This document shows, piece after piece, positions 6,746 through 43,259 of a DNA stretch of 64,000 bases (position 1 is its first letter; each line of letters begins with the position of its first letter). The stretch lies in sequence record OP778610. The stretch is one strand, 5' to 3'. Position numbers and translations under genes: made by a program. The notes under the pieces are model-generated. The model was not told the origin of the DNA. It was given only the letters and a program-made list of their open reading frames with translations, and searched no databases. The stretch is from Escherichia phage W70.

Positions 6746-7369
6746 ATGGCTATATATGCAAAACTGAAAGAAAGTAAGAAAAGTTATTTTATTTCGATGG
6801 ACCCATCTAACCGACGTATGATTGAAAATCATGGTGATCGATTCATTGTTCGACCTTCTGAGAATAACGATTCTTACTTACGTCCGGTGGGTCCACGTAT
6901 TGAGGGTCAGTTCTTAACATCCCGAGATATCGAAGAGTATTTTACATTCTTTCCTGAATGGTCAGCAGAGTCAGCAGAATACATCGTTAACTTGGCGATC
7001 CCGCAGGGTCAAGTGTCTATTGATGATCAGTATCTGTTGGGTGATTTAACTGGGGACTATAGAATTAAAACAAGCCACCCGAATATGTGGCGACTGTATA
7101 ACAACTCTACTAACCCTGATGATTATGTCCTAATCAAGCAGAGTAATTTGGAGAAATATTTTACCTTGCAAGAAGACTCCTTAAAGAAAGCACTGAAGAA
7201 GTTTGACAATTACACCCCTGCACCTGTAGAAAAAGAACAGGAAGTTGTAGATACGGATGTTTTTGAAGTGAACATTAAGCGCACAGTCAGGGTTAAGGAT
7301 GCGGAAGTCACAGAGGACAATCTGGATCAATTCATTGCACAGCTTACTAAACTGGTTAAAGGAGAATAA
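6746..7369 (+). CDS. hypothetical protein
   Basis: SD AAGAGGAG upstream; 207 aa. Confidence 0.55.
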   Translation: MAIYAKLKESKKSYFISMDPSNRRMIENHGDRFIVRPSENNDSYLRPVGPRIEGQFLTSRDIEEYFTFFPEWSAESAEYIVNLAIPQGQVSIDDQYLLGDLTGDYRIKTSHPNMWRLYNNSTNPDDYVLIKQSNLEKYFTLQEDSLKKALKKFDNYTPAPVEKEQEVVDTDVFEVNIKRTVRVKDAEVTEDNLDQFIAQLTKLVKGE

Positions 7370-7372
7370 AAG

Positions 7373-7687
7373 ATGATTATCGATGAAAGAACGCAAGTAG
7401 TTATTGACAAGACTTTCAGTGTACGTAAAAGTATCATTGCAGACATTAGTCTTGAGCGTATCACCGAGGAGGGTATTGATACTTCTGTAAACTACCCATT
7501 GGTGGAAGAAGACTTCTTACGTAAAATTATGAAGCAAAGTTTTACCGATCATGTGCAGGTAGAAACTAACGAAGAGATGTGGTTAGTCTTTAAACTATCT
7601 GCCGATACTGATCACGAACAAGAATTCAATGCGGCATTGGCATGGATTCTTAAATACTGTAATGACAATGATCTGGAGGTGATGTAA
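7373..7687 (+). CDS. hypothetical protein
   Basis: SD AAAGGAG in end of upstream gene; 104 aa. Confidence 0.5.
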   Translation: MIIDERTQVVIDKTFSVRKSIIADISLERITEEGIDTSVNYPLVEEDFLRKIMKQSFTDHVQVETNEEMWLVFKLSADTDHEQEFNAALAWILKYCNDNDLEVM

Positions 7688-8838: not shown

Positions 8839-8955
8839 TATTTGTTTGCTAAAACAAATTCAGATTTCAGATCCAAAATCTATTTGAGATATTTCCCTGT
8901 GATATTTGTTTCATGGGGAATTTTCAGATTTCAATTTGAAATTCTATTTGAGATA
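8836..8955. repeat. tandem imperfect ~56-bp direct repeat, period 64 bp, 2 copies
   Basis: TGATATTTGTTT..CAGATTTCA..TCTATTTGAGATA at 8836-8891 and 8900-8955. Confidence 0.7.
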
Positions 8956-9134
8956 AATTTAAGACTCTTGCCACCGTGTCACATCCATACTGTTTCATTC
9001 CTGCATACCCCGCACCACTAGATCAACTAAGCTGATGCCTCGCTTACAGACACACCCTTCAGATTCAATACGTTACTGCTCCAGTATACATACGATACAA
9101 AGCAAACATACGACACTCATGACCAGAATAATTT

Positions 9135-9302
9135 GAGAACTTGAGAGGTTTTTCATTTTTGAGATCGTAACCTGAAAACTGTGCACGAGAACTTGAGAGG
9201 TTTTTCGATACAGAGATTAGGAACTTGAGAGGTTTTTCATTTTTAAGTTTGCATTTGAAATTGAGAACTTGAGCTACAGGCCAGATACTTGAGGGGTTTT
9301 TC
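9135..9302. repeat. iteron-like array: 5 copies of GAGAACTTGAGAGGTTTTTC-type 20-bp unit
   Basis: copies at 9135-9154, 9187-9206, 9220-9238, 9263-9280 (degenerate), 9287-9302; irregular 30-60 bp spacing. Confidence 0.7.
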
Positions 9303-9666
9303 AAATTTCAGTTTCATTTCAAAATTGGAAAATTTTTTATATCCACAAAAATATAGGGCTTGTCAAGGTCTTTGATAAGAAATTTTCAGGAGGTGAGAAT
9401 TATTCTCATTTGCAGAATAACGGGCAGGGGTGGTGATTGCTTCGTGAAACCGTCCTCATCACCATGAATATATAATAGCACCGTTTTTGATTAGAAAGCA
9501 ACAACATTTTAAAAATATTTTTCGGTAAATTTTGGCCGAGCCACCGGCGATCCACCTTACAACCTGGCGGCGATGCCTGGTATGTTAGCCCCGCCTTTAC
9601 GCCGTGGGGATGGCGATTGTTTTCCTATGTAAGCATTATGGCCCCCTGGCGGGGCCGTTGTCAAGA

Positions 9667-9933: not shown

Positions 9934-10045
9934 GTTGTGTTGCCCTTTCTTTTGTTGTGCGCCCTGGTTGTCGCGGTAAAAAGACTATAAATGATCTTCC
10001 TTTATATAGCAAGGAAAAAGAAATTAAAAAAGATTAAAAATAATG

Positions 10046-10074
10046 TTGACGTAGTGAATCTGGTAGCGTAGTAT
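10046..10074 (+). promoter_or_regulatory. sigma70-like promoter (TTGACG-N17-TAGTAT)
   Basis: -35/-10 hexamers with 17-bp spacer upstream of first small-gene cluster. Confidence 0.45.
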
Positions 10075-10131
10075 TCATCTCATCGAACGGCGACATGCCA
10101 ACAAGTAAACAAATAAAAGGGCAACAACAAA

Positions 10132-10317
10132 ATGAATAAAAGAATTACAAACGTAAATCCTGGCGAACGTTTCCAACATGAGGGGCATTTGCACACTGTA
10201 GTAAGCAACAAAGAGCATACTGTAAGAGTAAATAGAAATATCTTGCAACTTCGCGATCGTTTTGGTATCGTACAGACTTACACTTTCGAAGCAAATAAAA
10301 CAGTTAAAACTTTCTGA
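10132..10317 (+). CDS. hypothetical small protein
   Basis: 61 aa; SD AAAAGGG upstream. Confidence 0.45.
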   Translation: MNKRITNVNPGERFQHEGHLHTVVSNKEHTVRVNRNILQLRDRFGIVQTYTFEANKTVKTF

Positions 10318-10328
10318 GGATTTTTAAA

Positions 10329-10664
10329 ATGGCACTAGTCACTAAGTATTTCATTGAAGGCCAGCAAGCGGCGCAACAAGGTTACAGCCGTGTTACTCGT
10401 TACAAGAAAGAAGAAAACAAGATTGAATTTTTCAAGGGTTACGATAGTGTAAACCGTGATGCAATGGTCCTACGCTTCGAATCCGATCCAGTGGGCAAGC
10501 CTGTTACCTCTTACCAGGCATCACCGCAGATTGTTTATGTTGGTACTGTTAAAGAATGTAACGACAAGTTAATCACTTTGAAGCAGGCCGATCGTGCGGG
10601 TTACTTTGTTGTTTACACTGCTGACGGTAAGCCTTACCAGTACGAAAGCAAATATTTTAAATAA
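10329..10664 (+). CDS. hypothetical protein
   Basis: 111 aa; SD GAGGA upstream. Confidence 0.5.
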   Translation: MALVTKYFIEGQQAAQQGYSRVTRYKKEENKIEFFKGYDSVNRDAMVLRFESDPVGKPVTSYQASPQIVYVGTVKECNDKLITLKQADRAGYFVVYTADGKPYQYESKYFK

Positions 10665-10670
10665 AAAGTA

Positions 10671-10727
10671 TTGACAGAAAGAAAGAAGTAAATTAAATTA
10701 TACCACGTAACGCCGCAATCGTGCGGC
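10671..10727 (+). promoter_or_regulatory. promoter cassette TTGACA-N17-TAAATT plus 5'-UTR hairpin GCCGCA-ATCG-TGCGGC
   Basis: consensus -35; hairpin between -10 and SD of 10746 gene. Confidence 0.5.
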
Positions 10728-10745
10728 AATAAAAACTGATAGGAA

Positions 10746-10967
10746 TTGAACAAAATGGCTAAAATCATCATTAAAAAATCCCGTGTATCTTCTGTTGCTC
10801 GCGTCGAAATGGTAAACACTATGCCAGGTTACCGGACTCGCGAGGAAGCCCGAAGCGTTGCAAAACAGATTAAAGCCCGTGGCTTAACTGTAAGTGCACC
10901 GACCAAAACACAAGAAGGATGGAAGGTATCTATTAAATCCGGTACACTGTCGATCAATAAACACTAA
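10746..10967 (+). CDS. hypothetical small basic protein
   Basis: 73 aa, Lys/Arg-rich. Confidence 0.5.
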   Translation: MNKMAKIIIKKSRVSSVARVEMVNTMPGYRTREEARSVAKQIKARGLTVSAPTKTQEGWKVSIKSGTLSINKH

Positions 10968-10983
10968 TAGCCAAAACATTAAC

Positions 10984-10999
10984 GGGGCAACTTTGCCCC
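10984..10999 (+). terminator. hairpin GGGGCAA-CT-TTGCCCC, weak terminator
   Basis: perfect GC stem after stop of 10746 gene; no clean U-tract. Confidence 0.3.
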
Positions 11000-11030
11000 T
11001 CACTAAATAACATTATCCAGGAGTATTAAC

Positions 11031-11189
11031 ATGACTAGCCAAAACACTAACATTGAAAAAATCAACATTACTAAAGAGCGTAAAGCATGGAATGAAACAT
11101 TAAATCTGAAAGGTAAGAAGCTGAATAAAACTAAACGCGATCGCAGTACAAAGCGGGCCTTTTGTGAATTTACAGCGGATCAAGAATGA
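11031..11189 (+). CDS. hypothetical small protein (52 aa)
   Basis: SD CAGGAG 7 nt upstream; ATGA overlap with next gene; not in ORF track. Confidence 0.45.
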   Translation: MTSQNTNIEKINITKERKAWNETLNLKGKKLNKTKRDRSTKRAFCEFTADQE

Positions 11190-11485
11190 TGATTAAAGTT
11201 ATTGCACTTACTGCCTTATTGTGTATACCATTTTTGGCGCACGGTACTAAGTTTTACGGTGCTAACTTGATAGATTGTAAAGCTCATATGCTGGACCATG
11301 AAACAGGCAACAAATTTGTTAAGCCTTTCCAGATCAATCCGGCGGTGTTTACTGACGGTGTTTTATATCAGGAAGGTAAAGCCAGTACGCTGATAATCCA
11401 TTACGATCCAGCGACAAAGAAAGGTAGTTTATCAATCCAGGTTGAAGGCGCGGAAGAGTTTTCAGGTAAAATAATCTGCAATTAA
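11186..11485 (+). CDS. hypothetical secreted protein (N-terminal signal peptide)
   Basis: MMIKVIALTALLCIPFLAHG hydrophobic leader; 99 aa. Confidence 0.5.
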   Translation: MMIKVIALTALLCIPFLAHGTKFYGANLIDCKAHMLDHETGNKFVKPFQINPAVFTDGVLYQEGKASTLIIHYDPATKKGSLSIQVEGAEEFSGKIICN

Positions 11486-11493
11486 TATGTTAA

Positions 11494-11522
11494 GGCCCGC
11501 CATTGTGCGGGCCTTTCTTTTA
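11494..11522 (+). terminator. rho-independent terminator
   Basis: GGCCCGC-CATTGT-GCGGGCC followed by TTTCTTTT. Confidence 0.65.
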
Positions 11523-11545
11523 TGAAAATAATTTTGAAAATGTTG

Positions 11546-11660
11546 TTGACAGCACCGATTAAAAGCGTATGATGTATTACATCAGGACGGGGAACCAAAC
11601 AAGTAACTCCCCGTTAAGTAGTCCAGGAGTAAGACATACGAAAACCTCCCCTGATAAAAT
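11546..11660 (+). promoter_or_regulatory. orphan promoter/UTR cassette without ORF (possible decayed gene or short transcript)
   Basis: TTGACA(11546)-N16-TATGAT, hairpin CGGGGA..TCCCCG, SD AGGAGTAAGAC followed by ATA instead of ATG (compare AGGAGTAAGAGAAATG at 16112-16130). Confidence 0.4.
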
Positions 11661-11663
11661 AGT

Positions 11664-11722
11664 TTGACAATAGTTTTTAGTACTGTATAATACATTACAT
11701 CAAGGGGAGAATAGTTCTCCCC
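11664..11722 (+). promoter_or_regulatory. promoter cassette TTGACA-N16-TATAAT plus hairpin GGGGAGAA-TAG-TTCTCCCC
   Basis: consensus hexamers; perfect 8-bp stem at 11704-11722 in 5' UTR. Confidence 0.55.
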
Positions 11723-11742
11723 ACATCAAAGGAATCAAAACA

Positions 11743-11970
11743 ATGGCTATCGTAATCACTCGCGTATCTGGTACAGTTGGCAATGCGGCAGTAGTAGCGG
11801 TTATCACTAATAAGAAAGGTGCGGAACTACATTTTGCAATGTATAACTGGTCAGTTGATGAGTTTGGTCAGTACGCTAGTGTAGAATACATTGAAACCTA
11901 TCAAGTGCCGTCGATTAGTTTAACTGATTTGGGCGTTGAGCGTATCCTTTGCCTGGATGAATTAAATTAA
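11743..11970 (+). CDS. hypothetical small protein
   Basis: 75 aa; SD AAAGGAA. Confidence 0.5.
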   Translation: MAIVITRVSGTVGNAAVVAVITNKKGAELHFAMYNWSVDEFGQYASVEYIETYQVPSISLTDLGVERILCLDELN

Positions 11971-11978
11971 AAAAGTAC

Positions 11979-12038
11979 TTGCAAAGTAAAACGAATAACG
12001 TATAATACATTACATCAAGGGGAGAAATGATTCTCCCC
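11979..12038 (+). promoter_or_regulatory. promoter cassette TTGCAA-N16-TATAAT plus hairpin GGGGAGAA-ATGA-TTCTCCCC
   Basis: near-duplicate of 11664 cassette. Confidence 0.5.
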
Positions 12039-12055
12039 ACTAAGAGGAAACTAAG

Positions 12056-12196
12056 ATGAAAACTTGCCAGTGTGGTAAAAAGTCTATTGCTGGTCTGCGT
12101 CGCGGTGTTGCTTTATGCCAGTATCATTACAATAGTCAAGTATGGGGTAAAACGTGGGCTGACCAGGTTGAAGCAGCAAAGAAAGCAAAAAAGTAA
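12056..12196 (+). CDS. hypothetical small Cys-containing protein (46 aa)
   Basis: SD AAGAGGAAA; MKTCQCGKKSIAGLRRGVALCQYHY...; not in ORF track. Confidence 0.45.
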   Translation: MKTCQCGKKSIAGLRRGVALCQYHYNSQVWGKTWADQVEAAKKAKK

Positions 12197-12254
12197 TTGA
12201 CAGCAGGAAGAAAAAGAGTAAACTGTATTACGTAGGGCGGCAATAGCGCCGCCA
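12197..12254 (+). promoter_or_regulatory. promoter cassette TTGACA-N16-TAAACT plus hairpin GGCGGC-N6-GCCGCC
   Basis: related to 16047 cassette (shared GAGTAAACTGTATTAC). Confidence 0.5.
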
Positions 12255-12274
12255 CATCAAAGAGAGAAATCAAA

Positions 12275-12493
12275 ATGGCTAATATCCGCACACTGTTAAA
12301 AAATGCAAAAGAAGTTTTATTTTCTGACGATGAATATTTTAATCGCAATATCAAAGGCGTTCGGAACATTAAGGATATAAAGGAATTATTTGGAATCAAA
12401 GGTAACGTATATCGTAAAGGATTGCACGGTAATAATTTTGAATATAAGTTGGCTGATAGTGATTATAATTTTACACTGACCATCATTAGTTGA
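12275..12493 (+). CDS. hypothetical small protein
   Basis: 72 aa; SD AGAGAGAAA. Confidence 0.5.
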   Translation: MANIRTLLKNAKEVLFSDDEYFNRNIKGVRNIKDIKELFGIKGNVYRKGLHGNNFEYKLADSDYNFTLTIIS

Positions 12494-12512
12494 AAGTTTT
12501 AATCTAGCGCTA

Positions 12513-12541
12513 TTGACTTAAGCCGATAGTGCTGGCATAAT
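12513..12541 (+). promoter_or_regulatory. promoter TTGACT-N17-CATAAT
   Basis: shares CATAATAACTTTTAT with 12806 promoter. Confidence 0.5.
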
Positions 12542-12573
12542 AACTTTTATCAAGAACATCAAAGGAAAGTAAA

Positions 12574-12786
12574 ATGGCTATCATTACTAAAATCAAAGTA
12601 AACAAAACACTGGTTAAGCTGGAAGAAGTGAAAGCAGGTTATAAAGTATCTTGGTGTGGCATGTATCGGATGTTCACAGATATAGACGATGCAATCAATT
12701 ACTACACTAACACGATTAAAAACTTTGTTCGTGCTGATGTGATTATTGCAGTGGAAGCACATAAAGCATCGAAAGAAAGTAAGTAA
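12574..12786 (+). CDS. hypothetical small protein
   Basis: 70 aa; SD AAAGGAAAG. Confidence 0.5.
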   Translation: MAIITKIKVNKTLVKLEEVKAGYKVSWCGMYRMFTDIDDAINYYTNTIKNFVRADVIIAVEAHKASKESK

Positions 12787-12805
12787 AATTATTACCACAG
12801 TACTA

Positions 12806-12834
12806 TTGACAACTACTGATAGTACTGACATAAT
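12806..12834 (+). promoter_or_regulatory. promoter TTGACA-N17-CATAAT
   Basis: duplicate of 12513 promoter. Confidence 0.5.
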
Positions 12835-12879
12835 AACTTTTATTAAGTACTACAAATCAAACAAAGAGAGAATACAATC

Positions 12880-13119
12880 ATGGCTAACAACAAAACTTTT
12901 AACGGTCACAAAAACAAAACTCATTGGAATGTTTCCTTGTGGATTAATAACGATGCATCACTGTATCGACTGGCTAATGATTTCATCGTCGCTAACACTA
13001 ATCGTAACGATGCGGCCCGTCATATGATGTTATTTTTAGAACAAACCGGACAACATAAAACACCGGACGGATTCAAGTATAGTACTACTGCAATCCGTGC
13101 CGCGATGGTTGGGATGTAA
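12880..13119 (+). CDS. hypothetical small protein
   Basis: 79 aa; SD AAAGAGAGAA. Confidence 0.5.
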   Translation: MANNKTFNGHKNKTHWNVSLWINNDASLYRLANDFIVANTNRNDAARHMMLFLEQTGQHKTPDGFKYSTTAIRAAMVGM

Positions 13120-13138
13120 TATTCAGTACTGAATCAAT

Positions 13139-13164
13139 GGCGGGGAATAGTTCCCGCCTTTACT
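13139..13164 (+). terminator. terminator-like hairpin
   Basis: GGCGGGGAA-TAG-TTCCCGCC followed by TTTACT. Confidence 0.45.
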
Positions 13165-13176
13165 GAGGATTATCTA

Positions 13177-13461
13177 ATGAGCAAAGTAATTAATAGTAAA
13201 GTACTGAGTAAAACATTAACACTCACTGAGTGCACCAATGGCTTTTGGCTATACGATTCTACCCGTGGCATGAATATAGCTATGCAAGCGAAATCAGAGG
13301 AGGCTGCATTTGTTGAAGCCCTGGGATACTATCAGAGACGTCTACAGGAAGTAGAAAACAATTACACCAGCCTTAAAGCGAAAGTAGACCATTTCATCGG
13401 GCAAGTGGTAGAAGATGATGAGGATGGTCACTATTGCGAACGCTGCGGATCTTACAGCTAA
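13177..13461 (+). CDS. hypothetical protein with C-terminal CxxC
   Basis: 94 aa; SD GAGGA upstream. Confidence 0.5.
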   Translation: MSKVINSKVLSKTLTLTECTNGFWLYDSTRGMNIAMQAKSEEAAFVEALGYYQRRLQEVENNYTSLKAKVDHFIGQVVEDDEDGHYCERCGSYS

Positions 13462-13469
13462 AAAAGTAG

Positions 13470-13528
13470 TTGACACAAAGAAACAAAACAAGTAAATTAA
13501 TCACATCAGGCGGGGAATGGACCCGCTA
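13470..13528 (+). promoter_or_regulatory. promoter cassette AAAAGTAGTTGACA-N17-TAAATT plus hairpin GCGGGGAATGGACCCGC
   Basis: near-identical (~50 bp) to cassette at 15587. Confidence 0.55.
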
Positions 13529-13548
13529 AAAGAGAAGAGAGAAATCAA

Positions 13549-13881
13549 ATGAGCTTTTTATCTATCGTACAGACTAACTTTGAAAATGATTTCATTGCTC
13601 AAGCTATCAACATCGACAAAGGTATCCCAAATATCAATTTTGGTTACAATAGCGGTGGTTATGAAAGATACCAGTATTTTGTAACTGACGATGGAAGTGT
13701 TTTAGGTATCAATACAGTGATGGCTAATATCCAAAACATTAATTTCAATGATCCCGATGAGCGCTCATTTTATATCGTCGGTATCCAGGTAAACTATGAA
13801 GATGATACGTTAACCGATGATTACACAGGTGAAGTATTAGAAAGTGTTTACGGTGATGAATCAGAAGAAGAAGAAGAATAA
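13549..13881 (+). CDS. hypothetical acidic protein
   Basis: 110 aa; poly-Glu C-terminus. Confidence 0.5.
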   Translation: MSFLSIVQTNFENDFIAQAINIDKGIPNINFGYNSGGYERYQYFVTDDGSVLGINTVMANIQNINFNDPDERSFYIVGIQVNYEDDTLTDDYTGEVLESVYGDESEEEEE

Positions 13882-13896
13882 GATTAGAAAAAGTAG

Positions 13897-13955
13897 TTGA
13901 CGGAAAGAGTATAAAGAAGTAAGATAATTAACGAATAGGGGGAAACATCTTCCCC
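13897..13955 (+). promoter_or_regulatory. promoter cassette AAAAGTAGTTGACG-N17-TAAGAT plus hairpin GGGGGAA-ACATC-TTCCCCC
   Basis: same upstream AAAAGTAG element as 13470 and 15587. Confidence 0.5.
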
Positions 13956-13980
13956 CATAAACAAAAAGAGAGATTGAAAA

Positions 13981-14163
13981 ATGACAGAACTGATTGCAAC
14001 TACAAAGATCGAAGGCGTTAACGATGTTACTTTGTCCTATGATCCTTCTACTCTGGTTTATGTTGTGAAATATGGCAGAATGATCGCAGAACTTGATTGC
14101 ATTGATGAGGCTTTCGAAAAATATTTCGAACTTATCAATATTGCTTATGATGACTACCGTTAA
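13981..14163 (+). CDS. hypothetical small protein
   Basis: 60 aa; SD AAAGAGAGA. Confidence 0.5.
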   Translation: MTELIATTKIEGVNDVTLSYDPSTLVYVVKYGRMIAELDCIDEAFEKYFELINIAYDDYR

Positions 14164-14193
14164 TATACAACGTAAAAATAGAAAGGTGATAAA

Positions 14194-14403
14194 ATGATCA
14201 ATGAAAAAACAATCAATGATGTTCGCGAGGAAGTTTTAGCCGTTGCTGTAGAATCGGGTGCACGTCAGGCATTTTGGAAAGCTACTGATCTTTACCCCGA
14301 GCAAGCCGAAAATATTCTTAATCAGGTCAGCGTTAAACTTGAACAAATAGGCAAACTGAAAACAAGTGAGCGCCTCGACCAAATCATTAAAGAAAGTTTT
14401 TGA
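14194..14403 (+). CDS. hypothetical small protein
   Basis: 69 aa; SD AAAGGTGA; no separate promoter, co-transcribed with 13981 gene. Confidence 0.5.
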   Translation: MINEKTINDVREEVLAVAVESGARQAFWKATDLYPEQAENILNQVSVKLEQIGKLKTSERLDQIIKESF

Positions 14404-14445
14404 TTGACTTTTAACATTGCCCCTATTAGTATTCAGGGGCAAGAT
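14404..14445 (+). promoter_or_regulatory. promoter TTGACT-N17-TAGTAT overlapping inverted repeat GCCCCT..AGGGGC
   Basis: -10 hexamer lies inside the inverted repeat at 14419-14440. Confidence 0.4.
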
Positions 14446-14467
14446 TAAAAGAAACAAGGACACAAAG

Positions 14468-14779
14468 ATGAACGATATTGTTAGCATTATAGGTTTACTG
14501 GGCGTAGGCTACGTCGCCACATCAATTACAATGAGTTACTTCAATAAAAGGCGTGATAAAATGTTTTGTTACTTTGAATACCGTTACCGTGGTAAGGTTG
14601 GATCATCCCGTGACTATGGTCCGATGTTAGAGATTGATGCGGTTGGCGCTATGCAGTATCGCCAGTCACTAGGGGCTGAAATAATTTTTGAAGTGTACCG
14701 CAGTACAGAAGAAGAGATCCACGACATTATTGACGAGCGTCAATATTACCACGAACAACAAACTAAACGCAGGGCTTAA
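14468..14779 (+). CDS. hypothetical membrane-anchored protein
   Basis: start moved to internal ATG with SD AAGGACACAAAG; N-terminal TM helix IVSIIGLLGVGYVATSI; 103 aa. Confidence 0.5.
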   Translation: MNDIVSIIGLLGVGYVATSITMSYFNKRRDKMFCYFEYRYRGKVGSSRDYGPMLEIDAVGAMQYRQSLGAEIIFEVYRSTEEEIHDIIDERQYYHEQQTKRRA

Positions 14780-14782
14780 CAT

Positions 14783-14920
14783 ATGACTAATACAAACCGA
14801 CAAAAAATCATCAAAACTAAAAAACTTGATTTCAATACTTATCAAGAATGCAAGAAGAAAGTAAAAGATAAGCGAGAGAACAAGCGGCACGAATGGATAA
14901 GCAATACAATCGATCTTTAA
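14783..14920 (+). CDS. hypothetical small basic protein (45 aa)
   Basis: ATG overlapping upstream stop; MTNTNRQKIIKTKKLDF...; not in ORF track. Confidence 0.35.
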   Translation: MTNTNRQKIIKTKKLDFNTYQECKKKVKDKRENKRHEWISNTIDL

Positions 14921-14929
14921 TATCAACCT

Positions 14930-14953
14930 AAGCCCACTATGTGGGCTTTTCTT
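14930..14953 (+). terminator. rho-independent terminator
   Basis: AAGCCCAC-TAT-GTGGGCTT followed by TTTTCTT. Confidence 0.7.
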
Positions 14954-14966
14954 ATGGAGAACAGAC

Positions 14967-15194
14967 ATGATTAATATTCTTTCACTTACAGAAGTGATCC
15001 GCTTCCTCAAAAACAACGCCCTGGGAACGTCTATAACGTATCTAATCCCGCAAGGTAAGGATTATGCCAGCGTTACACGTTCAATCACTGCTACGGCTTC
15101 CAGAGAAGAAATAAAGGTCAGCGTAAGCCAATTGTTGATTGTTGATCCGTCATCTTGCGAGACTATCCAGGCAGTAAAGATAATTAGAAAATAA
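14967..15194 (+). CDS. hypothetical small protein
   Basis: 75 aa; SD GGAGAA upstream. Confidence 0.45.
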   Translation: MINILSLTEVIRFLKNNALGTSITYLIPQGKDYASVTRSITATASREEIKVSVSQLLIVDPSSCETIQAVKIIRK

Positions 15195-15279
15195 TTTAAA
15201 AAACTTCTTGCATCCATTATTGAGAAGATGTACATTAGTTTCATCAAGACGAGATGATGACAATCAAAAGGTGATTACT

Positions 15280-15573
15280 ATGTTATACGAAGTTTTTGCG
15301 GGATTTTGTTTTTATGGTGCTGCCGCCGTTCGCCAATGTGATGATTATGTAGTTGAGTCATTCGATGATCCTTTGGCGTGTGAGATTGTTACTACGGCGT
15401 ATGAGCAAGATCGCCGTTGGATTAATCCGGCCTGTATCGCATCGCCTGAGGTTGAACCTATGCCGGAAGGTGAGGAATTAACAGAGGAAGACTTGCAAGA
15501 AGTAAAAGAAGTTATGAGCTACATGATTGATAATCTGGACGCTGAAAACTTACAACGGGCTTTGCAAAAATAA
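15280..15573 (+). CDS. hypothetical protein
   Basis: start moved to ATG with SD AAAAGGTGA (track ORF starts further upstream at 15208); 97 aa. Confidence 0.45.
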   Translation: MLYEVFAGFCFYGAAAVRQCDDYVVESFDDPLACEIVTTAYEQDRRWINPACIASPEVEPMPEGEELTEEDLQEVKEVMSYMIDNLDAENLQRALQK

Positions 15574-15586
15574 TTTGAAAAAGTAG

Positions 15587-15643
15587 TTGACTCAAAGAAG
15601 CAAAACAAGTAAATTATTCACATCAGGCGGGGAATGGCCCCGC
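15587..15643 (+). promoter_or_regulatory. promoter cassette AAAAGTAGTTGACT-N17-TAAATT plus hairpin GCGGGGAATGGCCCCGC
   Basis: duplicate of 13470 cassette. Confidence 0.55.
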
Positions 15644-15659
15644 TAAACAAAAAGAGATT

Positions 15660-16040
15660 ATGAAAATGGCTAAAAATACTAACGTTTGTGATTACGCTAA
15701 CCTGGTTACTCTGAATGCAGATTCTAAAATTAAACTAAGCGAGGTTGAAGCTATTCATATTCTGGCCCGTCGTTGGTTCCAACAATCATACGGCAATACT
15801 TATTTCTCTTTAAGTGTAGACGTGGAGATCGCTGGTAAATTGGTTCAAGTGGTTAGCGTGCCGTTCCAATATGGTTATGGTGATCATTTCGATACCGTGG
15901 CACTAGAAGAATTTAGCAAGGTTATCAACATGGAAGGCAAGGAGTTTTCACGCGGTAGCTATCTATCCCGTTTTTGCCGTGACAACAATATCCCTGTTTA
16001 TTCGAACGCCGTTGATGTTAAACGCAAAAAAGATATGTAA
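15660..16040 (+). CDS. hypothetical protein
   Basis: 126 aa; SD AAAAAGAG upstream. Confidence 0.5.
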   Translation: MKMAKNTNVCDYANLVTLNADSKIKLSEVEAIHILARRWFQQSYGNTYFSLSVDVEIAGKLVQVVSVPFQYGYGDHFDTVALEEFSKVINMEGKEFSRGSYLSRFCRDNNIPVYSNAVDVKRKKDM

Positions 16041-16046
16041 TTATTA

Positions 16047-16106
16047 TTGACAGTACAAAGAAAACGAGTAAACTGTATTACATAGAAAGCGGGAACACTT
16101 CCCGCT
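16047..16106 (+). promoter_or_regulatory. promoter cassette TTGACA-N16-TAAACT plus hairpin AGCGGGAA-CAC-TTCCCGCT
   Basis: related to 12197 cassette. Confidence 0.5.
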
Positions 16107-16127
16107 TATATTCTAGGAGTAAGAGAA

Positions 16128-16481
16128 ATGATCGAACAAATCAAAACTACGACGGCTAATGTAACGGGAACGGTAGCACACTTTACTAGTGATGAATCGC
16201 GGGGCGTTCCCTATTGTGCTGTACATGTAAACACTGAGGGTAACTACTGGTTTACGGTTTACGGATCATATTCATTTGGACGGCCAGGGCATCAAAAAAT
16301 TCTGGATAAAGTACAACCAACGGGTAAAAATATTACCGCTGAGATGTTTAATAAATCACTTGCAAAGTTAAAAGCACTGAAAGATTTTGGCTTTAAAGAT
16401 CTAGTTATCAAACGTGATGAAAAATTCCGCTTCCGTAATGATCTGGCAAATCGCTACTATGAAATCTATGAAGCACTTTAA
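16128..16481 (+). CDS. hypothetical protein
   Basis: 117 aa; SD TAGGAG upstream. Confidence 0.5.
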   Translation: MIEQIKTTTANVTGTVAHFTSDESRGVPYCAVHVNTEGNYWFTVYGSYSFGRPGHQKILDKVQPTGKNITAEMFNKSLAKLKALKDFGFKDLVIKRDEKFRFRNDLANRYYEIYEAL

Positions 16482-16487
16482 TAAAAA

Positions 16488-16510
16488 GGGCCGCAATAGC
16501 GGCCTTTTCT
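16488..16510 (+). terminator. rho-independent terminator
   Basis: GGGCCGC-AATA-GCGGCC followed by TTTTCT; a diverged copy without U-tract at 16806-16826. Confidence 0.65.
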
Positions 16511-16511
16511 A

Positions 16512-16540
16512 TTGACACCTGCTAACCATTCCTTTAATAT
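16512..16540 (+). promoter_or_regulatory. promoter TTGACA-N17-TAATAT
   Basis: immediately after the terminator. Confidence 0.5.
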
Positions 16541-16591
16541 GCATCTTGTAGGGCAAGCAATAACGCAAGCCCACAAATAGGACAAACTATT

Positions 16592-16789
16592 ATGACCATC
16601 GCTAATGAACTGATCGCCGTATTGAATGAAGCCAAATCTAATGAAATCGATGTACAGATCAAGGAATTACCCAATGGCCTGATAGGTTGCACTTGCACCT
16701 GTATCGGAAGTGACTACACAGAGGTAAGCTCTCTAGAATCTCTCATTCGTCACTTGAAATCAATAGTTGAAGATTGGAGAATCATCTAA
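16592..16789 (+). CDS. hypothetical small protein
   Basis: 65 aa; last gene of small-ORF battery. Confidence 0.5.
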   Translation: MTIANELIAVLNEAKSNEIDVQIKELPNGLIGCTCTCIGSDYTEVSSLESLIRHLKSIVEDWRII

Positions 16790-16959
16790 TAAACCAGGGG
16801 CCGCAATAGTGGCCCTTGTCATGTCCATCGGTGCGACTCTCCCAACCCTATTAATCCCTTCCCCATTTGGATCATCATAACTTACCTCATCTAATCATTA
16901 ATCTAATCCCCTTTGGAATCTCTCCCCCACAAATCTAAACTAATCTGATAGCTTACCAT

Positions 16960-35750: not shown

Positions 35751-36076
35751 TTTTTAACTCCGAAGATCTTAGATAGTAATTTATCATTCCCGATAGTTAC
35801 ACCACAAAAACTTTTTACTCCGTATACTAGATACGACCCGATTGTAACACAGATAATGATCGGATAAACAAGATACCAAAAGAATGTTGCAAGTATCCAC
35901 CCTGCCATCACCATACGTAAATTTACATTTTCGTTATTCAGTGGCTCCAGGATATAAATATCCTCACAATCTTTTGGGAAGGGGATGTTGAACCCCTTCT
36001 GCCGTAATTTGATCAGTAAGAACCAAAGTGGGCAACTAATAAGACAACCTATTAAATAACCTTCAACCATTTTCAC
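35747..36076 (-). CDS. hypothetical membrane protein, tandem paralog A
   Basis: WFLLIKLRQKGF motif; TM helices. Confidence 0.5.
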   Translation of the reverse strand: MKMVEGYLIGCLISCPLWFLLIKLRQKGFNIPFPKDCEDIYILEPLNNENVNLRMVMAGWILATFFWYLVYPIIICVTIGSYLVYGVKSFCGVTIGNDKLLSKIFGVKK

Positions 36077-37313
36077 TCTCCTTCAACTTGTCAAGATATT
36101 GTGTAACGTATCTTACTTTTACATTTCGGATTCTGCTCTTGATCTCATCTGGACGTCCCGCGAATTTTTCAGAAATCTCTTTACTTTCTTTTGAGATTGC
36201 AACACTGTTCTGAATAATCCCCGCCAGTGCTGAGAATAATACCAGTGGTTGACTGTAGTTGTCAAACATTTTTTCAGGTCCACGCCCACGAGCATCACAG
36301 ATGCAAGCGTCAATAAATTCAGAGAGGAATGCTTGGTCCTTTTCACCACGTAAGGCTACTAACAAGTCATAAACTTTCTTTGGCTTCATTTCTTTGATAC
36401 GGTGAAGTCGTGTATGATGCTCAGTTACAGCTAAAGCCAACTTCTTCCAATTATTGGGGACACCAAAGCGATCACAAACTTGTTCAGTTAACTTGATACC
36501 ATGTTCTTCGTGACCGTGCAGTTTACCCGTTAGCCAATAAATACATTTACCTAAGTCGTGACAAAGGACTGCCCACTTCACAGCCTCACTTGCACGAGTC
36601 GCCTGGGCATAATCCATGCAAAGTAAAGTGTGAACAAATGCATCACCTTCAGGATGGTGCTCCTTGGGTTGAACAACATCGTATAAATCCACAAGCTCAG
36701 GAAATTCTCCCAGTTGAGTCAACATACGGATCATTACCGAAGGTTTATTCATTTCTGACTGATCACTGAAGCATTTCTTAATCTCTGCAAATTTACGCTC
36801 TTTTGGCAATGCACTTAAATCCACACTCCGACACATTAGCCAAGTGTCAGGATCAATTGTAAACTCACCGCCGTATCTGGCATGTAATCTGGCTAGTCGG
36901 TACACACGTAAAGGGTCTTCGATAAATGCTTTAGTGGATACACAACGTAACCGACGAAGTTCAATATCCATTGCACCATTACAAGGGTCGATAATTTCGC
37001 CCGTGGAAATATCCTTGGCGATCGCATTAATGGTTAAATCTCTTCGCATCAGGTCTTGTTCAATTGTAACGTCTGGAGAGAACACAACTTCGAAATCGTG
37101 ATAACCAGGGCCTGTTGATCTTTCCGTTCGAGCAAGAGCATACTCTTCTTTAGTGTTCGGTTCAAGGTACACAGGGAAAGCTGCACCAACCTTAGTAAAT
37201 CCCTTCTCAATCATTTCTTCATGGGTCGCTCCAACTACAACGTAGTCACGATCCTTGCTTTCAACACTCATTAGTTCATCGCGAACTGCACCACCTACCA
37301 AGTAAACTTTCAT
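36063..37313 (-). CDS. cca: tRNA nucleotidyltransferase (CCA-adding enzyme) with HD domain
   Basis: MKVYLVGGAVRDELM, DRDYVV, RRDLTINAIA head-domain motifs; SD GGGAG 6 nt upstream of chosen ATG; track ORF extends to 37361. Confidence 0.7.
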   Translation of the reverse strand: MKVYLVGGAVRDELMSVESKDRDYVVVGATHEEMIEKGFTKVGAAFPVYLEPNTKEEYALARTERSTGPGYHDFEVVFSPDVTIEQDLMRRDLTINAIAKDISTGEIIDPCNGAMDIELRRLRCVSTKAFIEDPLRVYRLARLHARYGGEFTIDPDTWLMCRSVDLSALPKERKFAEIKKCFSDQSEMNKPSVMIRMLTQLGEFPELVDLYDVVQPKEHHPEGDAFVHTLLCMDYAQATRASEAVKWAVLCHDLGKCIYWLTGKLHGHEEHGIKLTEQVCDRFGVPNNWKKLALAVTEHHTRLHRIKEMKPKKVYDLLVALRGEKDQAFLSEFIDACICDARGRGPEKMFDNYSQPLVLFSALAGIIQNSVAISKESKEISEKFAGRPDEIKSRIRNVKVRYVTQYLDKLKESENG

Positions 37314-37351
37314 TCCTTCTTCTCCCATTCTTTCCAATTCTGCATGTCCGC

Positions 37352-37516
37352 TCATAGCCATCCCCTTTCTTTATACCCTTTTGTAAATCCTGATTCCCAA
37401 TCTTGAAATTGCTCCGGCATGGTGTTTGGATTATACGGGTTGTTTCTCTTGAACATCCCAAACTTGAATCCAGCGGCTCGGCCCTTCTCGTATGCTGAAC
37501 TGCTTTTTCTTGTCAT
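37352..37516 (-). CDS. hypothetical small basic protein
   Basis: internal ATG overlapping upstream stop; 54 aa. Confidence 0.35.
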   Translation of the reverse strand: MTRKSSSAYEKGRAAGFKFGMFKRNNPYNPNTMPEQFQDWESGFTKGYKERGWL

Positions 37517-37842
37517 ACTCTTTCTCCTCTTAAATTTAAAGACCAATCTTTTATTTCTTCTTTCCAGTTCGTATTTCTCTTAATGTCTTGCTTTTGACCG
37601 CGAAGATAGTTAATGATCTCAAGCGGGTCTTGCTTAACAAAAGAAATATTGTCGATCGGGCACTCAACTAACTTAAGCATCCTTTCAAAACGATTATACT
37701 CATCTTCTGATTTCGGTGCAACAGGAATAACATCATAATCTTCAAGATTGTCGAGAGTTTCAAGGGTAACCCTCATCTCGTAGCCTTCTAATCTCTTTGT
37801 CTTGATACCAAACACTCTTCGAAAGTAAATGTAATATTTCAT
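37513..37842 (-). CDS. hypothetical protein
   Basis: 109 aa. Confidence 0.5.
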   Translation of the reverse strand: MKYYIYFRRVFGIKTKRLEGYEMRVTLETLDNLEDYDVIPVAPKSEDEYNRFERMLKLVECPIDNISFVKQDPLEIINYLRGQKQDIKRNTNWKEEIKDWSLNLRGERV

Positions 37843-37902
37843 TATGTTCTCCTACTTAATGATCATCATTATACACATCCCTGAATTCAAGTCAACAAAA
37901 AA

Positions 37903-37920
37903 GGCCACCCGAAGGTGACC
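37903..37920 (-). terminator. rho-independent terminator (minus strand)
   Basis: GGTCACC-TTCG-GGTGGCC on minus strand followed by TTTTTT. Confidence 0.55.
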
Positions 37921-37927
37921 TTTAAAT

Positions 37928-38437
37928 TTAAGGGTGAATCCAGTAAAAAGGTTTTGTTAAACCAAGTTTACCTTTCGGGTCCCAAATGAAGTAGGCATAC
38001 GCCGCACCATCTGTTTTCCCATCCTCAGTAAAAGAGGGTCGCTTGGATAGAGTAACCAAGTGATCAACAGGATATTCCTTCCAGAACTCCACACGTTTGG
38101 TACTCTCAAGGAAACCTAAACGAAGCAGCATTATCACCACATCAGCATCCTTGTGAGCCTTCTCTACAAACTCTTGAGCTAAATTATAAGGTGGGTTAGT
38201 TAACACACAATCTACCTTATTGTATTTAGTTGCAAGATAATCAACACCTTCTTGAATCTCTCCCCAAGCTGAACCAATTGGCATTTCATTATAAAAACGT
38301 CCAGAGGCTCTGCAAGGTTCCAGATAAGTCCAATCCTGACGGATTGGAACTAAATTCAAGAAAGCATCTACTGCCCATTTCGGAGTTTCATAGCGATCAT
38401 TTTCACGGCGCTCTGCTTTAGGTTTCAATGCTGCCAC
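37928..38437 (-). CDS. DNA N6-adenine methyltransferase (Dam-like, NPPY motif)
   Basis: DRYETPKWAVDAF and VDCVLTNPPYNLAQEF motifs; 169 aa. Confidence 0.65.
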   Translation of the reverse strand: MAALKPKAERRENDRYETPKWAVDAFLNLVPIRQDWTYLEPCRASGRFYNEMPIGSAWGEIQEGVDYLATKYNKVDCVLTNPPYNLAQEFVEKAHKDADVVIMLLRLGFLESTKRVEFWKEYPVDHLVTLSKRPSFTEDGKTDGAAYAYFIWDPKGKLGLTKPFYWIHP

Positions 38438-38439
38438 TC

Positions 38440-39285
38440 TTATTTGCCCCCTTCTTTCGCCGCAGTGATGATCTGTTCAATTAACTCATCACGATAATAA
38501 ACGTACTGTTCAACACCGAAACATTCCGCAATCTCGTCTAGTTCGTCGAGGTTGTACTCGTCAAAGTCTCGTGGGTTAAGAGTAAAGATGTTGAATTTTT
38601 TGGCGTAGCCTTCGTCGAGGACGATTTCAAATTCTCCCTCTCCGATTTCCTTCGCATCATCAACATCACTCGATTCGATTGACCCTTCAACCTTAATCCC
38701 CCCTGTATTTTGTTGATCGGCTTCCATTTGCTTTTTAATTGCTTCATCTTCAGCGGTCAAACGGGCTTGCATCTGAGAGGAAGTGAAGTAAATTTCGCCA
38801 GCACGATCAAACAGTTCAACGAGTTCATCTTCTGTCATAACACCCTTGTACAGATCGTAGTATTTCTCTTTGAACAGGTCTTTGTAGAAATCGCTACGTT
38901 TAAATACCAGTGCTGAATCACCACCCATACTCATCTGAACGTTGTGGAACATGTAATGAGAACCTGGACGACAAATTCGAACATGACCAGACAAGAAGAT
39001 CATTGTTGCAGCACTTGCCACTTCACCAATACCGTGTGTTACAACAGTCGCCTTTGTTTCAGAGATCGCTGTCATGTACATATCTGCGATATCACAATAA
39101 CCACCACAAGAAGTAATGTACAGATTTACAATATCACCTTCAGGTGCTGAACGAATCAGGTCAACAGCCTCGATATGTGCTTCAGGTGAATTGTGCAGAT
39201 CCGTAACATAAATACGCCAATCGTTAGAAGTTACTGGAGACACCCAAATGTTTTTTGCCGGACCATTCATTACGATTTCTTCCAT
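38440..39285 (-). CDS. ClpP-like serine peptidase (S14 family)
   Basis: ITSCGGY..GEVASAATMIFLSG..MFHNVQ resembles ClpP catalytic core; acidic C-terminal extension. Confidence 0.55.
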   Translation of the reverse strand: MEEIVMNGPAKNIWVSPVTSNDWRIYVTDLHNSPEAHIEAVDLIRSAPEGDIVNLYITSCGGYCDIADMYMTAISETKATVVTHGIGEVASAATMIFLSGHVRICRPGSHYMFHNVQMSMGGDSALVFKRSDFYKDLFKEKYYDLYKGVMTEDELVELFDRAGEIYFTSSQMQARLTAEDEAIKKQMEADQQNTGGIKVEGSIESSDVDDAKEIGEGEFEIVLDEGYAKKFNIFTLNPRDFDEYNLDELDEIAECFGVEQYVYYRDELIEQIITAAKEGGK

Positions 39286-39297
39286 ATTAATTCCCCC

Positions 39298-39768
39298 TTA
39301 GCTAATTAAAGTACGGATGCGGGTAGCGTTTTGCAGAACCCAGTCTACTACGACAGAATGATCAGAGTCAACAATTACTTCATGATGACGTTTGAACATA
39401 TCAAGAATCTTTGCTGCTTCGGCAGTATAAAGTGCCGCACGATCTAAAAAGATAATCTGCTCTTTAAGTTCTTCTGTAATCGGACATAACTTACTTGGGA
39501 CCTTGATGGCTGACAAATGTTCTACCAACTCTTTTCGAGTAGAGAACATAATATCAACTTCCTGATCGATACTAAGAGAGCCTAAGAATAAGCGAGAAAA
39601 CCATCCACGATACTCATCGTTGTTTTTACGCAAAGTCTTAATTCCAAATATTAACTCTTCGAACAGGGCTGTTGCAATTTCTTCAATACGATCAGGAACA
39701 ATAGCCCCACAATTTTTCAATTCCATCAGTTTACGATGATCAACTGTTGCGTACATACCCTTATCCAT
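39298..39768 (-). CDS. hypothetical protein
   Basis: 156 aa. Confidence 0.5.
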   Translation of the reverse strand: MDKGMYATVDHRKLMELKNCGAIVPDRIEEIATALFEELIFGIKTLRKNNDEYRGWFSRLFLGSLSIDQEVDIMFSTRKELVEHLSAIKVPSKLCPITEELKEQIIFLDRAALYTAEAAKILDMFKRHHEVIVDSDHSVVVDWVLQNATRIRTLIS

Positions 39769-39776
39769 ATCACCCC

Positions 39777-43257: not shown

Positions 43258-43259
43258 CC

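Follow-up and report, generated by a model that had tools for sequence, protein, structure and literature searches.

Early ORFan arrays are where virulent phages keep host-takeover and anti-defence genes, and the gain and loss of genes in such arrays is poorly understood outside the T4-like phages. In the latter (RB49/phi1, T4/PST and KVP40/nt-1), hyperplastic ORFan regions contain promoter-early stem-loop (PeSL) cassettes, in which a strong sigma70 promoter is joined to a G(n)-loop-C(n) stem-loop, a Shine-Dalgarno sequence (SD) and an ATG (Arbiol et al. 2010, PMC2839356; Comeau et al. 2014, PMC4122927). A block on upstream transcription has been put forward as the task of the stem-loop, and a reporter assay showed such a block in one case; recombination between PeSLs shuffles genes (PMC2839356, PMC4122927). 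Here we analyse a 64,000-nt stretch (the window) of Escherichia phage W70, record OP778610, a ~142-kb virulent E. coli myovirus classed in Vequintavirinae, which carries on its plus strand, from 10046 to ~16815, an array of small open reading frames (ORFs) behind repeated promoter cassettes. Like PeSLs, these cassettes are intergenic units of ~100 bp that open with AT-rich sequence and contain a near-consensus sigma70 promoter and a G(n)-loop-C(n) hairpin ahead of an SD and ATG. Moreover, they lie in a hyperplastic ORFan region, cassette recombination deletes or swaps single modules, and a chimera in the related phage A73 parallels the case in Fig. 3 of the PeSL papers. A first-pass annotation of the window had overlooked PeSLs, which are the main precedent.

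On balance we consider it probable, if only modestly so, that the array is a set of host-RNA-polymerase-dependent, presumably early ORFans on PeSL-like mobile cassettes whose hairpin serves as an RNA end structure. A cassette of this kind (~85–95 bp) begins with the stop codon of the upstream gene in an A-tract, followed by a near-consensus sigma70 promoter and by C-A-T-C-A, a conserved initial transcribed sequence whose A, the eighth nucleotide after the −10 box, is the predicted start. A G(n)A-loop-TC(n) stem-loop then begins at +4 to +6 of this predicted start in about two-thirds of the clear cassettes, and an A-rich unstructured leader with SD and ATG completes the unit. The hairpin would act as RNA in the cassette's own transcript, as a 5′-proximal end structure tuning mRNA lifetime or yield, and the same hairpin on read-through transcripts from the upstream gene would be a barrier to 3′ exonucleases. 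Such an element would tune yield with no on/off switching, and would be neither an efficient terminator nor a sequence-specific operator.

Promoters were scored by their match to TTGACA-N16-18-TATAAT (out of 12), and sites of at least 10/12 were called strong. The plus strand of the array has ten strong sites (10671, 11546, 11664, 11979, 12197, 12513, 12806, 13470, 16047 and 16512), compared with 1.64 ± 1.30 and a maximum of 6 in 200 dinucleotide shuffles and with none on the minus strand of the array; the cassettes are repeated and statistically non-random. Weaker sites (8–9/12) are present at 10046, 13897, 14404, 15208 and 15587. The first-pass annotation held that most of the genes have their own near-consensus promoter, which fits only loosely, as ~13–14 of the 21 do. 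Upstream of the −35 box the motif AAAAAGTA(N)TTGACA is conserved. Eight cassettes (promoters at 10671, 11664, 11979, 12197, 13470, 13897, 15587 and 16047) have a perfect G+C stem of 5–9 bp starting 11 or 12 nt past the −10 box, while the 11546 promoter is followed by a long-loop hairpin and the 16512 promoter by an imperfect one; the window count of G+C hairpins beginning 11–12 nt past a −10 box is nine. Across the 64-kb window, plus-strand hairpin starts between −40 and +60 of a promoter-like −10 box fall at +11 (three), +12 (four), +15 (one) and −16 (one). Each hairpin leader folds as a single hairpin (z = −2.3 to −4.5) with SD and AUG unpaired, and the two hairpin-less leaders gave no structure on folding. 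The ATG is 32 nt from the −10 box in the hairpin-less 12513 cassette and 49–57 nt from it in the hairpin cassettes. The statement that many cassettes have a hairpin between the −10 box and the SD needs correction at two points: the 12513 and 12806 cassettes are without one, and the hairpins at 10984, 13139 and 14417 have no convincing promoter.

A scan of loci of A7_1, UPEC06 and A73, of Phapecoctavirus nepoznato and DIJ07P2, Justusliebigvirus EmilieFrey, Asteriusvirus G17 and UE-S1, and Alcyoneusvirus Muenster found ~90 further cassettes of the same architecture, which is thus seen in Asteriusvirus, Alcyoneusvirus and Stephanstirmvirinae, including jumbo phages unrelated to the window phage. 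In 95 cassettes from 10 loci, the stem starts on average 11.7 nt past the −10 box (standard deviation 1.55, range 8–16 nt) and ends 20.9 ± 3.3 nt ahead of the ATG; hence, the place of the hairpin is fixed more closely relative to the promoter than relative to the start codon. Positions 7–9 after the −10 box read CAT in 53 and CGT in 14 of these cassettes (67/95 together), and T7 A1 has its annotated start at the A of CATCGAGAGGG, likewise the eighth nucleotide past the −10 box. Because of this conservation and of the T7 A1 geometry, the start was placed at the purine ~8 nt after the −10 box; the initial sequence ATCGAGAG of T7 A1 is also present in several cassettes. From this predicted start, 3–5 unpaired nucleotides (mode 3, mean 3.4, range 0–7) precede the stem. 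The earlier placement of the hairpin at the extreme 5′ end of each transcript is supported: it is downstream of the predicted start and would lie 3–5 nt in from the end of the cassette's own transcript.

The G-rich arm comes first in all cassette hairpins (5′ arm composition G 297, C 64), and the loop-closing pair is AU in 56 of 68 hairpins; these loop-adjacent A.U pairs and the fixed arm polarity are more than stability alone explains. The loops are of 25 different kinds among 72 hairpins and 3–8 nt long (for example TAG, ATGG, AATGG, ATGA, CAC and ACATC), and the stems vary too. In a selected set of 68 distinct loop-aligned hairpins, 82.9% of the cells are paired compared with 58.7 ± 1.3 after shuffling of the 3′ letters, 134 double changes occur compared with 42.6 ± 5.6, and the covariation score is 0.61 compared with 0.19 (reached in 0 of 500 shuffles; slid controls 0.09–0.23). 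Within one promoter family the hairpin sequence has been swapped while its pairing and place were kept. Orthologous cassettes of the window, A7_1 and UPEC06 show a stem-base G.U switched to A-U and to G-C, and a compensated 1-bp deletion in both arms (GGGGGAA/TTCCCCC to GGGGGA/TCCCCC), and in A7_1/UPEC06 the inner stem is substituted between identical flanks; two changes in the orthologous comparison weaken a stem. The stems are thus upheld in relatives by changes in both arms, as the first-pass annotation had required of them. Compensatory change has preserved the stem-loop, whose spacing from the −10 box is constant and which differs from the T-tract terminators of these arrays. At the first position outside the perfect stem, G.T occurs 20 times compared with 10 expected, and A.C plus C.A 8 times compared with 8.3; this excess and the G-arm-first order modestly favour a plus-sense RNA over a DNA structure. 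We also considered the hairpin as a tiny mobile insertion with a target-site duplication (ACATCAA stands on both sides of 11704–11722), and rejected this idea, as flanking repeats are no longer than in a permuted-flank control.

Recombination, which the first-pass annotation had likewise overlooked, is the best-documented function of the cassettes here. The modular build that had been claimed, with duplicated promoter/leader cassettes ahead of small genes, is borne out, and all the duplicated cassettes were recovered, the three named pairs at identities of 71–88%: 13461–13551 and 15578–15668 are 87% identical over 91 nt, 12196 and 16046 88% over 40 nt, and 12493 and 12786 71% over 76 nt. In addition, 11685 and 12000 are 76% identical over 55 nt. 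A73 is without window 12555–12802, and its sole remaining cassette there is a chimera that matches window cassette 9 in its 5′ half and cassette 10 in its 3′ half; the two were joined within CATAATAACTTTTATCAAG, a stretch of −10 box and initial transcribed sequence common to both. Compared with A73 and A7_1, 13120–13459 is an extra module bordered by a stop codon and a cassette. Across phages, homologous genes stand behind different cassettes with different hairpins or none. Cassettes and genes are 80–88% identical to those of Asteriusvirus, which gave no match at all to a 10-kb core segment of the window. The cassettes are thus portable homology, through which recombination deletes, inserts and re-pairs modules within the lineage and between unrelated phage families. 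Separately, ORF 16128–16481 is itself chimeric, residues 1–76 matching phrog_9227 and residues 82–117 phrog_12277. It spans a junction (16363–16375) at which A73 and A7_1 have 6.75 kb (~17 genes) that are absent from the window, and the 13-nt overlap at this junction indicates that the deletion arose within genes and not within cassettes.

The features of the array are as follows (ORF lengths in amino acids, aa).

10046..10074, plus strand: first promoter, TTGACG-N17-TAGTAT (9/12), no hairpin; conserved in A7_1 and UPEC06.
10132–10317 (61 aa) and 10329–10664 (111 aa), plus: ORFs behind the 10046 promoter.
10662..10754, plus: cassette with A-tract, promoter 10671–10699 (TTGACA-N17-TAAATT) and SD, leading to ORF 10755–10967 (70 aa).
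10712–10727, plus: hairpin of the 10662 cassette, GCCGCA atcg TGCGGC.
10984..10999, plus: promoter-less hairpin, GGGGCA actt TGCCCC, no T-tract.
11031–11189 (52 aa, 31 nt past the hairpin) and 11186–11485 (99 aa), plus: ORFs after the 10984 hairpin.
11492..11524, plus: canonical intrinsic terminator, AAGGCCCGC cattgt GCGGGCCTT then TCTTTTAT.
11546..11662, plus: orphan cassette, promoter 11546–11573 (TTGACA-N16-TATGAT, 11/12) with a conserved non-coding element at ~11581–11662.
11655..11742, plus: cassette, promoter 11664–11691 (12/12), leading to ORF 11743–11970 (75 aa).
11704–11722, plus: hairpin of the 11655 cassette, GGGGAGAA tag TTCTCCCC.
11970..12055, plus: cassette, promoter 11979–12006 (TTGCAA-N16-TATAAT), leading to ORF 12056–12196 (46 aa).
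12019–12038, plus: hairpin of the 11970 cassette, GGGGAGAA atga TTCTCCCC.
12188..12274, plus: cassette, promoter 12197–12224 (TTGACA-N16-TAAACT), leading to ORF 12275–12493 (72 aa).
12236–12253, plus: hairpin of the 12188 cassette, GGCGGC aatagc GCCGCC.
12493..12573, plus: hairpin-less cassette, promoter 12513–12541 (TTGACT-N17-CATAAT, TG extension), unstructured leader.
12574–12786, plus: ORF of the 12493 cassette (70 aa); the entire module is missing from A73.
12786..12879, plus: hairpin-less cassette, direct repeat of the 12493 cassette, promoter 12806–12834, leading to ORF 12880–13119 (79 aa).
13139..13158, plus: promoter-less hairpin, GGCGGG gaatagtt CCCGCC then TTTACTG, possibly a weak terminator; next ORF 13177–13461 (94 aa).
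13461..13548, plus: cassette, promoter 13470–13498, leading to ORF 13549–13881 (110 aa).
13510–13526, plus: hairpin of the 13461 cassette, GCGGG gaatgga CCCGC.
13888..13980, plus: cassette, promoter 13897–13925 (TTGACG-N17-TAAGAT), leading to ORFs 13981–14163 (60 aa) and 14194–14403 (69 aa).
13938–13956, plus: hairpin of the 13888 cassette, GGGGGAA acatc TTCCCCC.
14417..14442, plus: hairpin, TTGCCCCT, 10-nt loop, AGGGGCAA, overlapping a weak promoter-like site at 14404–14432.
14468–14779 (103 aa) and 14783–14920 (45 aa), plus: ORFs after the 14417 hairpin.
14930..14956, plus: canonical terminator, AAGCCCAC tat GTGGGCTT then TTCTTATG; next ORF 14967–15194 (75 aa).
15208..15279, plus: degenerate hairpin-less cassette, TTGCAT-N17-TACATT (8/12), initial transcribed sequence ..TTCATCAAG, leading to ORF 15280–15573 (97 aa); read by eye, the automated promoter scan giving no call there.
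15578..15665, plus: cassette, copy of 13461–13548, promoter 15587–15615, leading to ORF 15660/15666–16040 (124–126 aa).
15627–15643, plus: hairpin of the 15578 cassette, GCGGGG aatgg CCCCGC.
16046..16127, plus: cassette, promoter 16047–16074 (copy of the one at 12196), leading to ORF 16128–16481 (117 aa, chimeric).
16087–16107, plus: hairpin of the 16046 cassette, AAGCGGGAA cac TTCCCGCTT.
16489..16591, plus: terminator (GGCCGC aata GCGGCC + TTTTCT) abutting a cassette with promoter 16512–16540 (TTGACA-N17-TAATAT).
16548–16574, plus: imperfect hairpin of the 16489 unit, leading to ORF 16592–16789 (65 aa).
16798..16815, plus: terminal hairpin at the end of the array, GGGCC gcaatagt GGCCC.

Three true T-tract terminators are present inside the array (11492, 14930 and 16489), and the cassette hairpins do not resemble them. 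At least five T in the 8 nt past the stem were found for 1 of 87 promoter-proximal hairpins and for 18 of 65 other hairpins of the same arrays (window and relatives), in agreement with the earlier statement that the hairpins have no U-tracts, and the 8 nt after the cassette stems are 50% A and 22% T. The arm polarity of the non-cassette hairpins and true terminators in the arrays is the opposite of that of the cassette hairpins, and none of the ARNold terminators annotated in G17 falls on a cassette hairpin. These A-rich tails and separate T-tract terminators support the view that the cassette hairpins are not canonical terminators. Moreover, an efficient terminator at +5 to +25 would abort the cassette's own transcript too. 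The hairpin may nevertheless be an attenuator or terminator as proposed for the original PeSLs, damping upstream transcription so that each module depends chiefly on its own promoter and strong promoters in tandem are not additive. We hold this to be unlikely, but it is a serious rival: when one G(n)-loop-C(n) hairpin of RB49/phi1 was inserted between promoter and lacZ, expression fell as with rrnB T1 (PMC2839356), and because the RB49 hairpins in our scan likewise have no T-tracts, a missing T-tract does not argue decisively against attenuation. The cassette hairpins are also intergenic and of terminator-like stability (−10 to −17 kcal/mol), and similar promoter-less hairpins follow stop codons at 10984 and 13139, ARNold calling the G17 copy of the latter a terminator. 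However, apart from the tails and the coexisting T-tract terminators, the hairpin lies downstream of the start in ~90 cassettes and never upstream, so that it would act equally on its own transcript, the opposite of RB49. In the nepoznato array the first promoter has no co-directional gene upstream and a hairpin nonetheless, with nothing co-directional to terminate, and the tight −10 spacing has no rationale under attenuation.

The hairpin had also been taken as a shared RNA-level control element, which, understood as one common recognition sequence, does not hold: stems and loops differ between cassettes, and homologous genes have another hairpin or none. It is improbable that a phage or host protein or RNA reads a shared element, as in the nut/boxB or RegA systems, and thereby controls the stability, translation, antitermination or shut-off of all early transcripts in concert. 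The constant start-adjacent position, the G-arm-first polarity and the AU closing pair go beyond what stability needs and would suit such a reader, as would the conservation of the architecture in four phage groups. Yet the variety of loops makes a sequence-specific operator unlikely and fits better with a generic structural role, orthologous genes lose or swap the hairpin freely, PHROG and Pfam searches identified no RNA-binding candidate among the array ORFs, and the phage groups sharing the cassettes have no common core genome. Equally improbable is a role at the DNA level only, in which the palindrome would be a recombination hot spot or a cruciform aiding cassette exchange, and its transcription incidental. 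Cassettes demonstrably mediate recombination, and the inner-stem replacement between identical flanks in A7_1/UPEC06 resembles a micro-conversion, but the only resolved crossover lies in two hairpin-less cassettes, so that homology alone suffices. The strand asymmetry and the plus-sense G.T excess are unexpected for a symmetric DNA structure, and stems of 5–9 bp are short for cruciform extrusion. Least probable, in our view, is that the hairpin is a functionless hitch-hiker, for example the stem of a former terminator, spread by cassette duplication. Hairpin-less cassettes do drive homologous genes and cassettes are copied as units, but the replacement of the hairpin sequence within one promoter family with pairing and position kept, the compensatory changes and compensated indels between orthologues, and the persistence of the architecture in four diverged phage groups all speak against this reading. 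A generic RNA end structure is the most likely role as judged from sequence, because the hairpin is coupled to the start site, is independent of sequence, leaves the ribosome binding site open, and is present at the first nepoznato promoter.

Several points weigh against a 5′ end structure in this sense, in addition to the RB49 hairpin that reduced read-through as strongly as rrnB T1 (PMC2839356). RppH and the 5′ sensor of RNase E need at least 2 unpaired nucleotides and prefer at least 3 (PMC8833179), and RNase E readily scans past simple orthogonal stem-loops (PMC9943677); thus, classical 5′ protection of the ompA type is doubtful. The hairpin is dispensable, as homologous genes have it in one phage and are without it in another. 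Because the covariation set consists of related sequences picked for at least five perfect pairs, its shuffle statistics overstate independence, and the comparative evidence is more telling. Mismatches inside the stems (C.A/A.C 5, G.T 3) show no clear preference for the plus sense, and they are few and non-independent. Finally, both the transcript start and the early timing are inferred.

The 11546 promoter drives no ORF. Behind it lies an element of ~85 nt, itself without an ORF, that ends at the next −35 box. It is found at 92–95.5% identity in 44 phage records (all Asteriusvirus and A73-like phages), at 2–4 places per record in Asteriusvirus when terminal-repeat copies are included, and at 85–89% identity in Justusliebigvirus EmilieFrey, outra and muut. 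The element is more conserved than the neighbouring genes, while the spacer of its own promoter varies freely. It folds to −19.6 kcal/mol; nine copies show no compensatory pairs and two G.U changes, the copies being too similar for covariation. No match was found in 5,426 E. coli genomes, searched with a host mimic or antisense in mind, and no Rfam family fits the element; Rfam gave no match at gathering score in the whole window, and only sub-threshold, chance-level ones around 11480–11760. Scans of viral contigs for diverged copies gave only phage 121Q, and the zero from a looser pattern is not trustworthy. Homology to the T7 A1–A2 inter-promoter region was rejected, with only collinear 7–8-mers shared and a Smith-Waterman score of 17 compared with 15.8 ± 2.5 for shuffled sequences. 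Possible identities of the element are a small RNA, the structured leader of a tandem-promoter unit and a DNA site. A further reaching proposal, which we regard as rather doubtful, would make the G-arm-first hairpin at +4 to +6 a factor-read mark of early transcripts, controlling their lifetime or shut-off and exchanged together with ORFans across coliphage families, and the 85-nt element a new small RNA or leader. As a side observation, the A7_1 record annotates at 7244–7642 a minus-strand coding sequence of 132 aa across the terminator, the orphan promoter and the 85-nt element; the homologous region of the window codes plus-strand ORF 11186–11485 instead, and the A7_1 call is probably spurious.

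The array holds 21 plus-strand ORFs of 45–126 aa within 10132–16789, close to the battery of ~22 tiny genes announced by the first-pass annotation. Of 20 ORFs tested, 18 match PHROG families, all of unknown function, which indicates that they are real genes. Apart from sub-threshold matches, Pfam recognised only the T7 gene 1.1 protein family (Phage_1_1; ORF 11031–11189, 36.3 bits at a cut-off of 21) and DUF7249 (ORF 12880–13119), and no relatives of four array ORFs were found in the PDB. Phage_1_1 is an early-region gene common to T7-like podoviruses. A homologous array in the Klebsiella jumbo phage Muenster (Alcyoneusvirus) fills the 20-kb direct terminal repeat (1–20030), where genes for a YeeU-like antitoxin, a YafQ-like toxin and a protein kinase are annotated. 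Sigma70 promoter clusters in the short-ORF regions of CB7 and CBB have been read as early regions (PMC7344957, PMC5259590). We infer early firing of the promoters from host RNA polymerase because of the sigma70 match, the T7 gene 1.1 homologue, the Muenster terminal repeat and such published readings (PMC3606486 among them); a literature search found no transcriptomes for these phage groups. A host-takeover role of the array is plausible on the basis of the sigma70 promoters, the gene 1.1 homologue and the terminal-repeat position in Muenster.

The array phage is a Vequintavirinae-type E. coli myovirus, nearest to A73 and A7_1. A73 is 100% identical to the window over 36000–46000, but the array region is only 93–95% identical to A73, A7_1, A5-4 and UPEC06, with indels in addition. 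Upstream, the array is bordered by a divergent, repeat-rich non-coding region, which at 8859–9313 has iteron-like direct repeats (four copies of GAGAACTTGAGAGGTTTTTC spaced 32–64 bp apart, and two copies of TTCAGATTTCA..ATTTGAGATA); an origin is conceivable here, or a regulatory region that separates divergent transcription units. Downstream, an ORF-poor stretch (16810–19000) precedes minus-strand genes. It contains short repeats (CCACAAAGA..TTGCCCACAAA and GGCACAACATTTTTG) and one HNH_3 homing-endonuclease gene (17955–18443), and a search for tRNAs in this region after the array found none. The first base of the UPEC06 record is equivalent to window position ~17389, and thus a genome end or packaging site may sit in this stretch. 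The only cassette-like site outside the array is at 50284–50230 on the minus strand, where TTGACA-N17-TATCAT is followed, 9 nt past the −10 box, by the hairpin TGGGGCA tgt TGCCCCA and then by CTTTTAAAATG..SD..ATG. On the minus (coding) strand of 19001–64000 there are 25 promoter sites of at least 10/12, and none besides this one has a promoter-proximal hairpin.

These observations extend the PeSL principle to Vequintavirinae-like phages, Stephanstirmvirinae and two genera of jumbo phages, families between which cassettes and genes pass at 80–95% nucleotide identity while their core genomes are unrelated. The cassettes are compact, portable and, as predicted, very strong expression units, ~90 bp in length, that bring a promoter, a 5′ structure and an accessible ribosome binding site. 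Their positions also indicate possible points at which engineered genes could be inserted into therapeutic-type phages with the neighbours undisturbed.

Several known systems share single features with these cassettes. The A1, A2 and A3 promoters of T7, likewise strong sigma70 promoters in tandem, lie at the early end of a virulent coliphage genome and have the start geometry and initial sequence noted above, and the mapped A1 and A2 RNAs start with predicted stable hairpins, at +2 and +1. In contrast to the cassettes, which provide one promoter per gene and have the hairpin at +4 to +6, the three T7 promoters feed one long transcript processed by RNase III, and there is no significant sequence homology. 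Emory, Bouvet and Belasco (listed in PMC3997798) reportedly described in 1992 stabilising 5′-terminal stem-loops (ompA, papA and the T7 gene 10 leader) whose stem must lie within ~0–4 nt of the end. Like these stabilisers, the cassettes have close to the 5′ end a stable stem-loop, the sequence of which does not matter, and after it an unstructured ribosome binding site, but the 3–5 unpaired nucleotides predicted for them would suffice for RppH and RNase E (PMC8833179). The cassette hairpins have the G+C-rich stem, the similar stability and the intergenic place of intrinsic terminators, but differ from them in the missing T-tract, the A-rich tail, the opposite arm polarity and the position downstream of a promoter. 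They differ from nut/boxB antitermination sites in the number of loops (25 among 72 hairpins), and no flanking motif is common to them except the initial transcribed sequence. The host-takeover module of SPO1 is a comparable dense array of small genes with host-type promoters. Dense small genes of unknown function with a host-type promoter and an A-rich upstream element are also found in the Vequintavirinae CB7/CR3 (PMC7344957) and rV5 (PMC3606486) and in the RaK2-like CBB (PMC5259590). Like the SPO1 module, these arrays have been taken for early or host-takeover genes; the reports on them deal with promoters only and mention no hairpin after the −10 box, cassette duplication or cassette shuffling.

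PeSLs are thus the nearest relatives in design, and they differ from the window cassettes chiefly in where the hairpin stands. In the same scan, RB49 hairpins lie inside or upstream of the promoter, at −24, −16, −14 and −67 relative to the −10 end, and none lies downstream; in PST and nt-1 the hairpin is just upstream of the promoter. The window-type hairpins always follow the −10 box by 8–16 nt and are transcribed from their own promoter. The host phages belong to different families, and no sequence homology to the RB49 cassettes is detectable beyond the promoter. From its position, the RB49 hairpin can act only on read-through transcripts, whereas the hairpin of the window is part of the cassette's own mRNA. 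This opposite placement offers a clean contrast between action on a cassette's own mRNA and action on read-through transcripts. The window cassettes are a PeSL-like variant with a transcribed hairpin, in new phage families.

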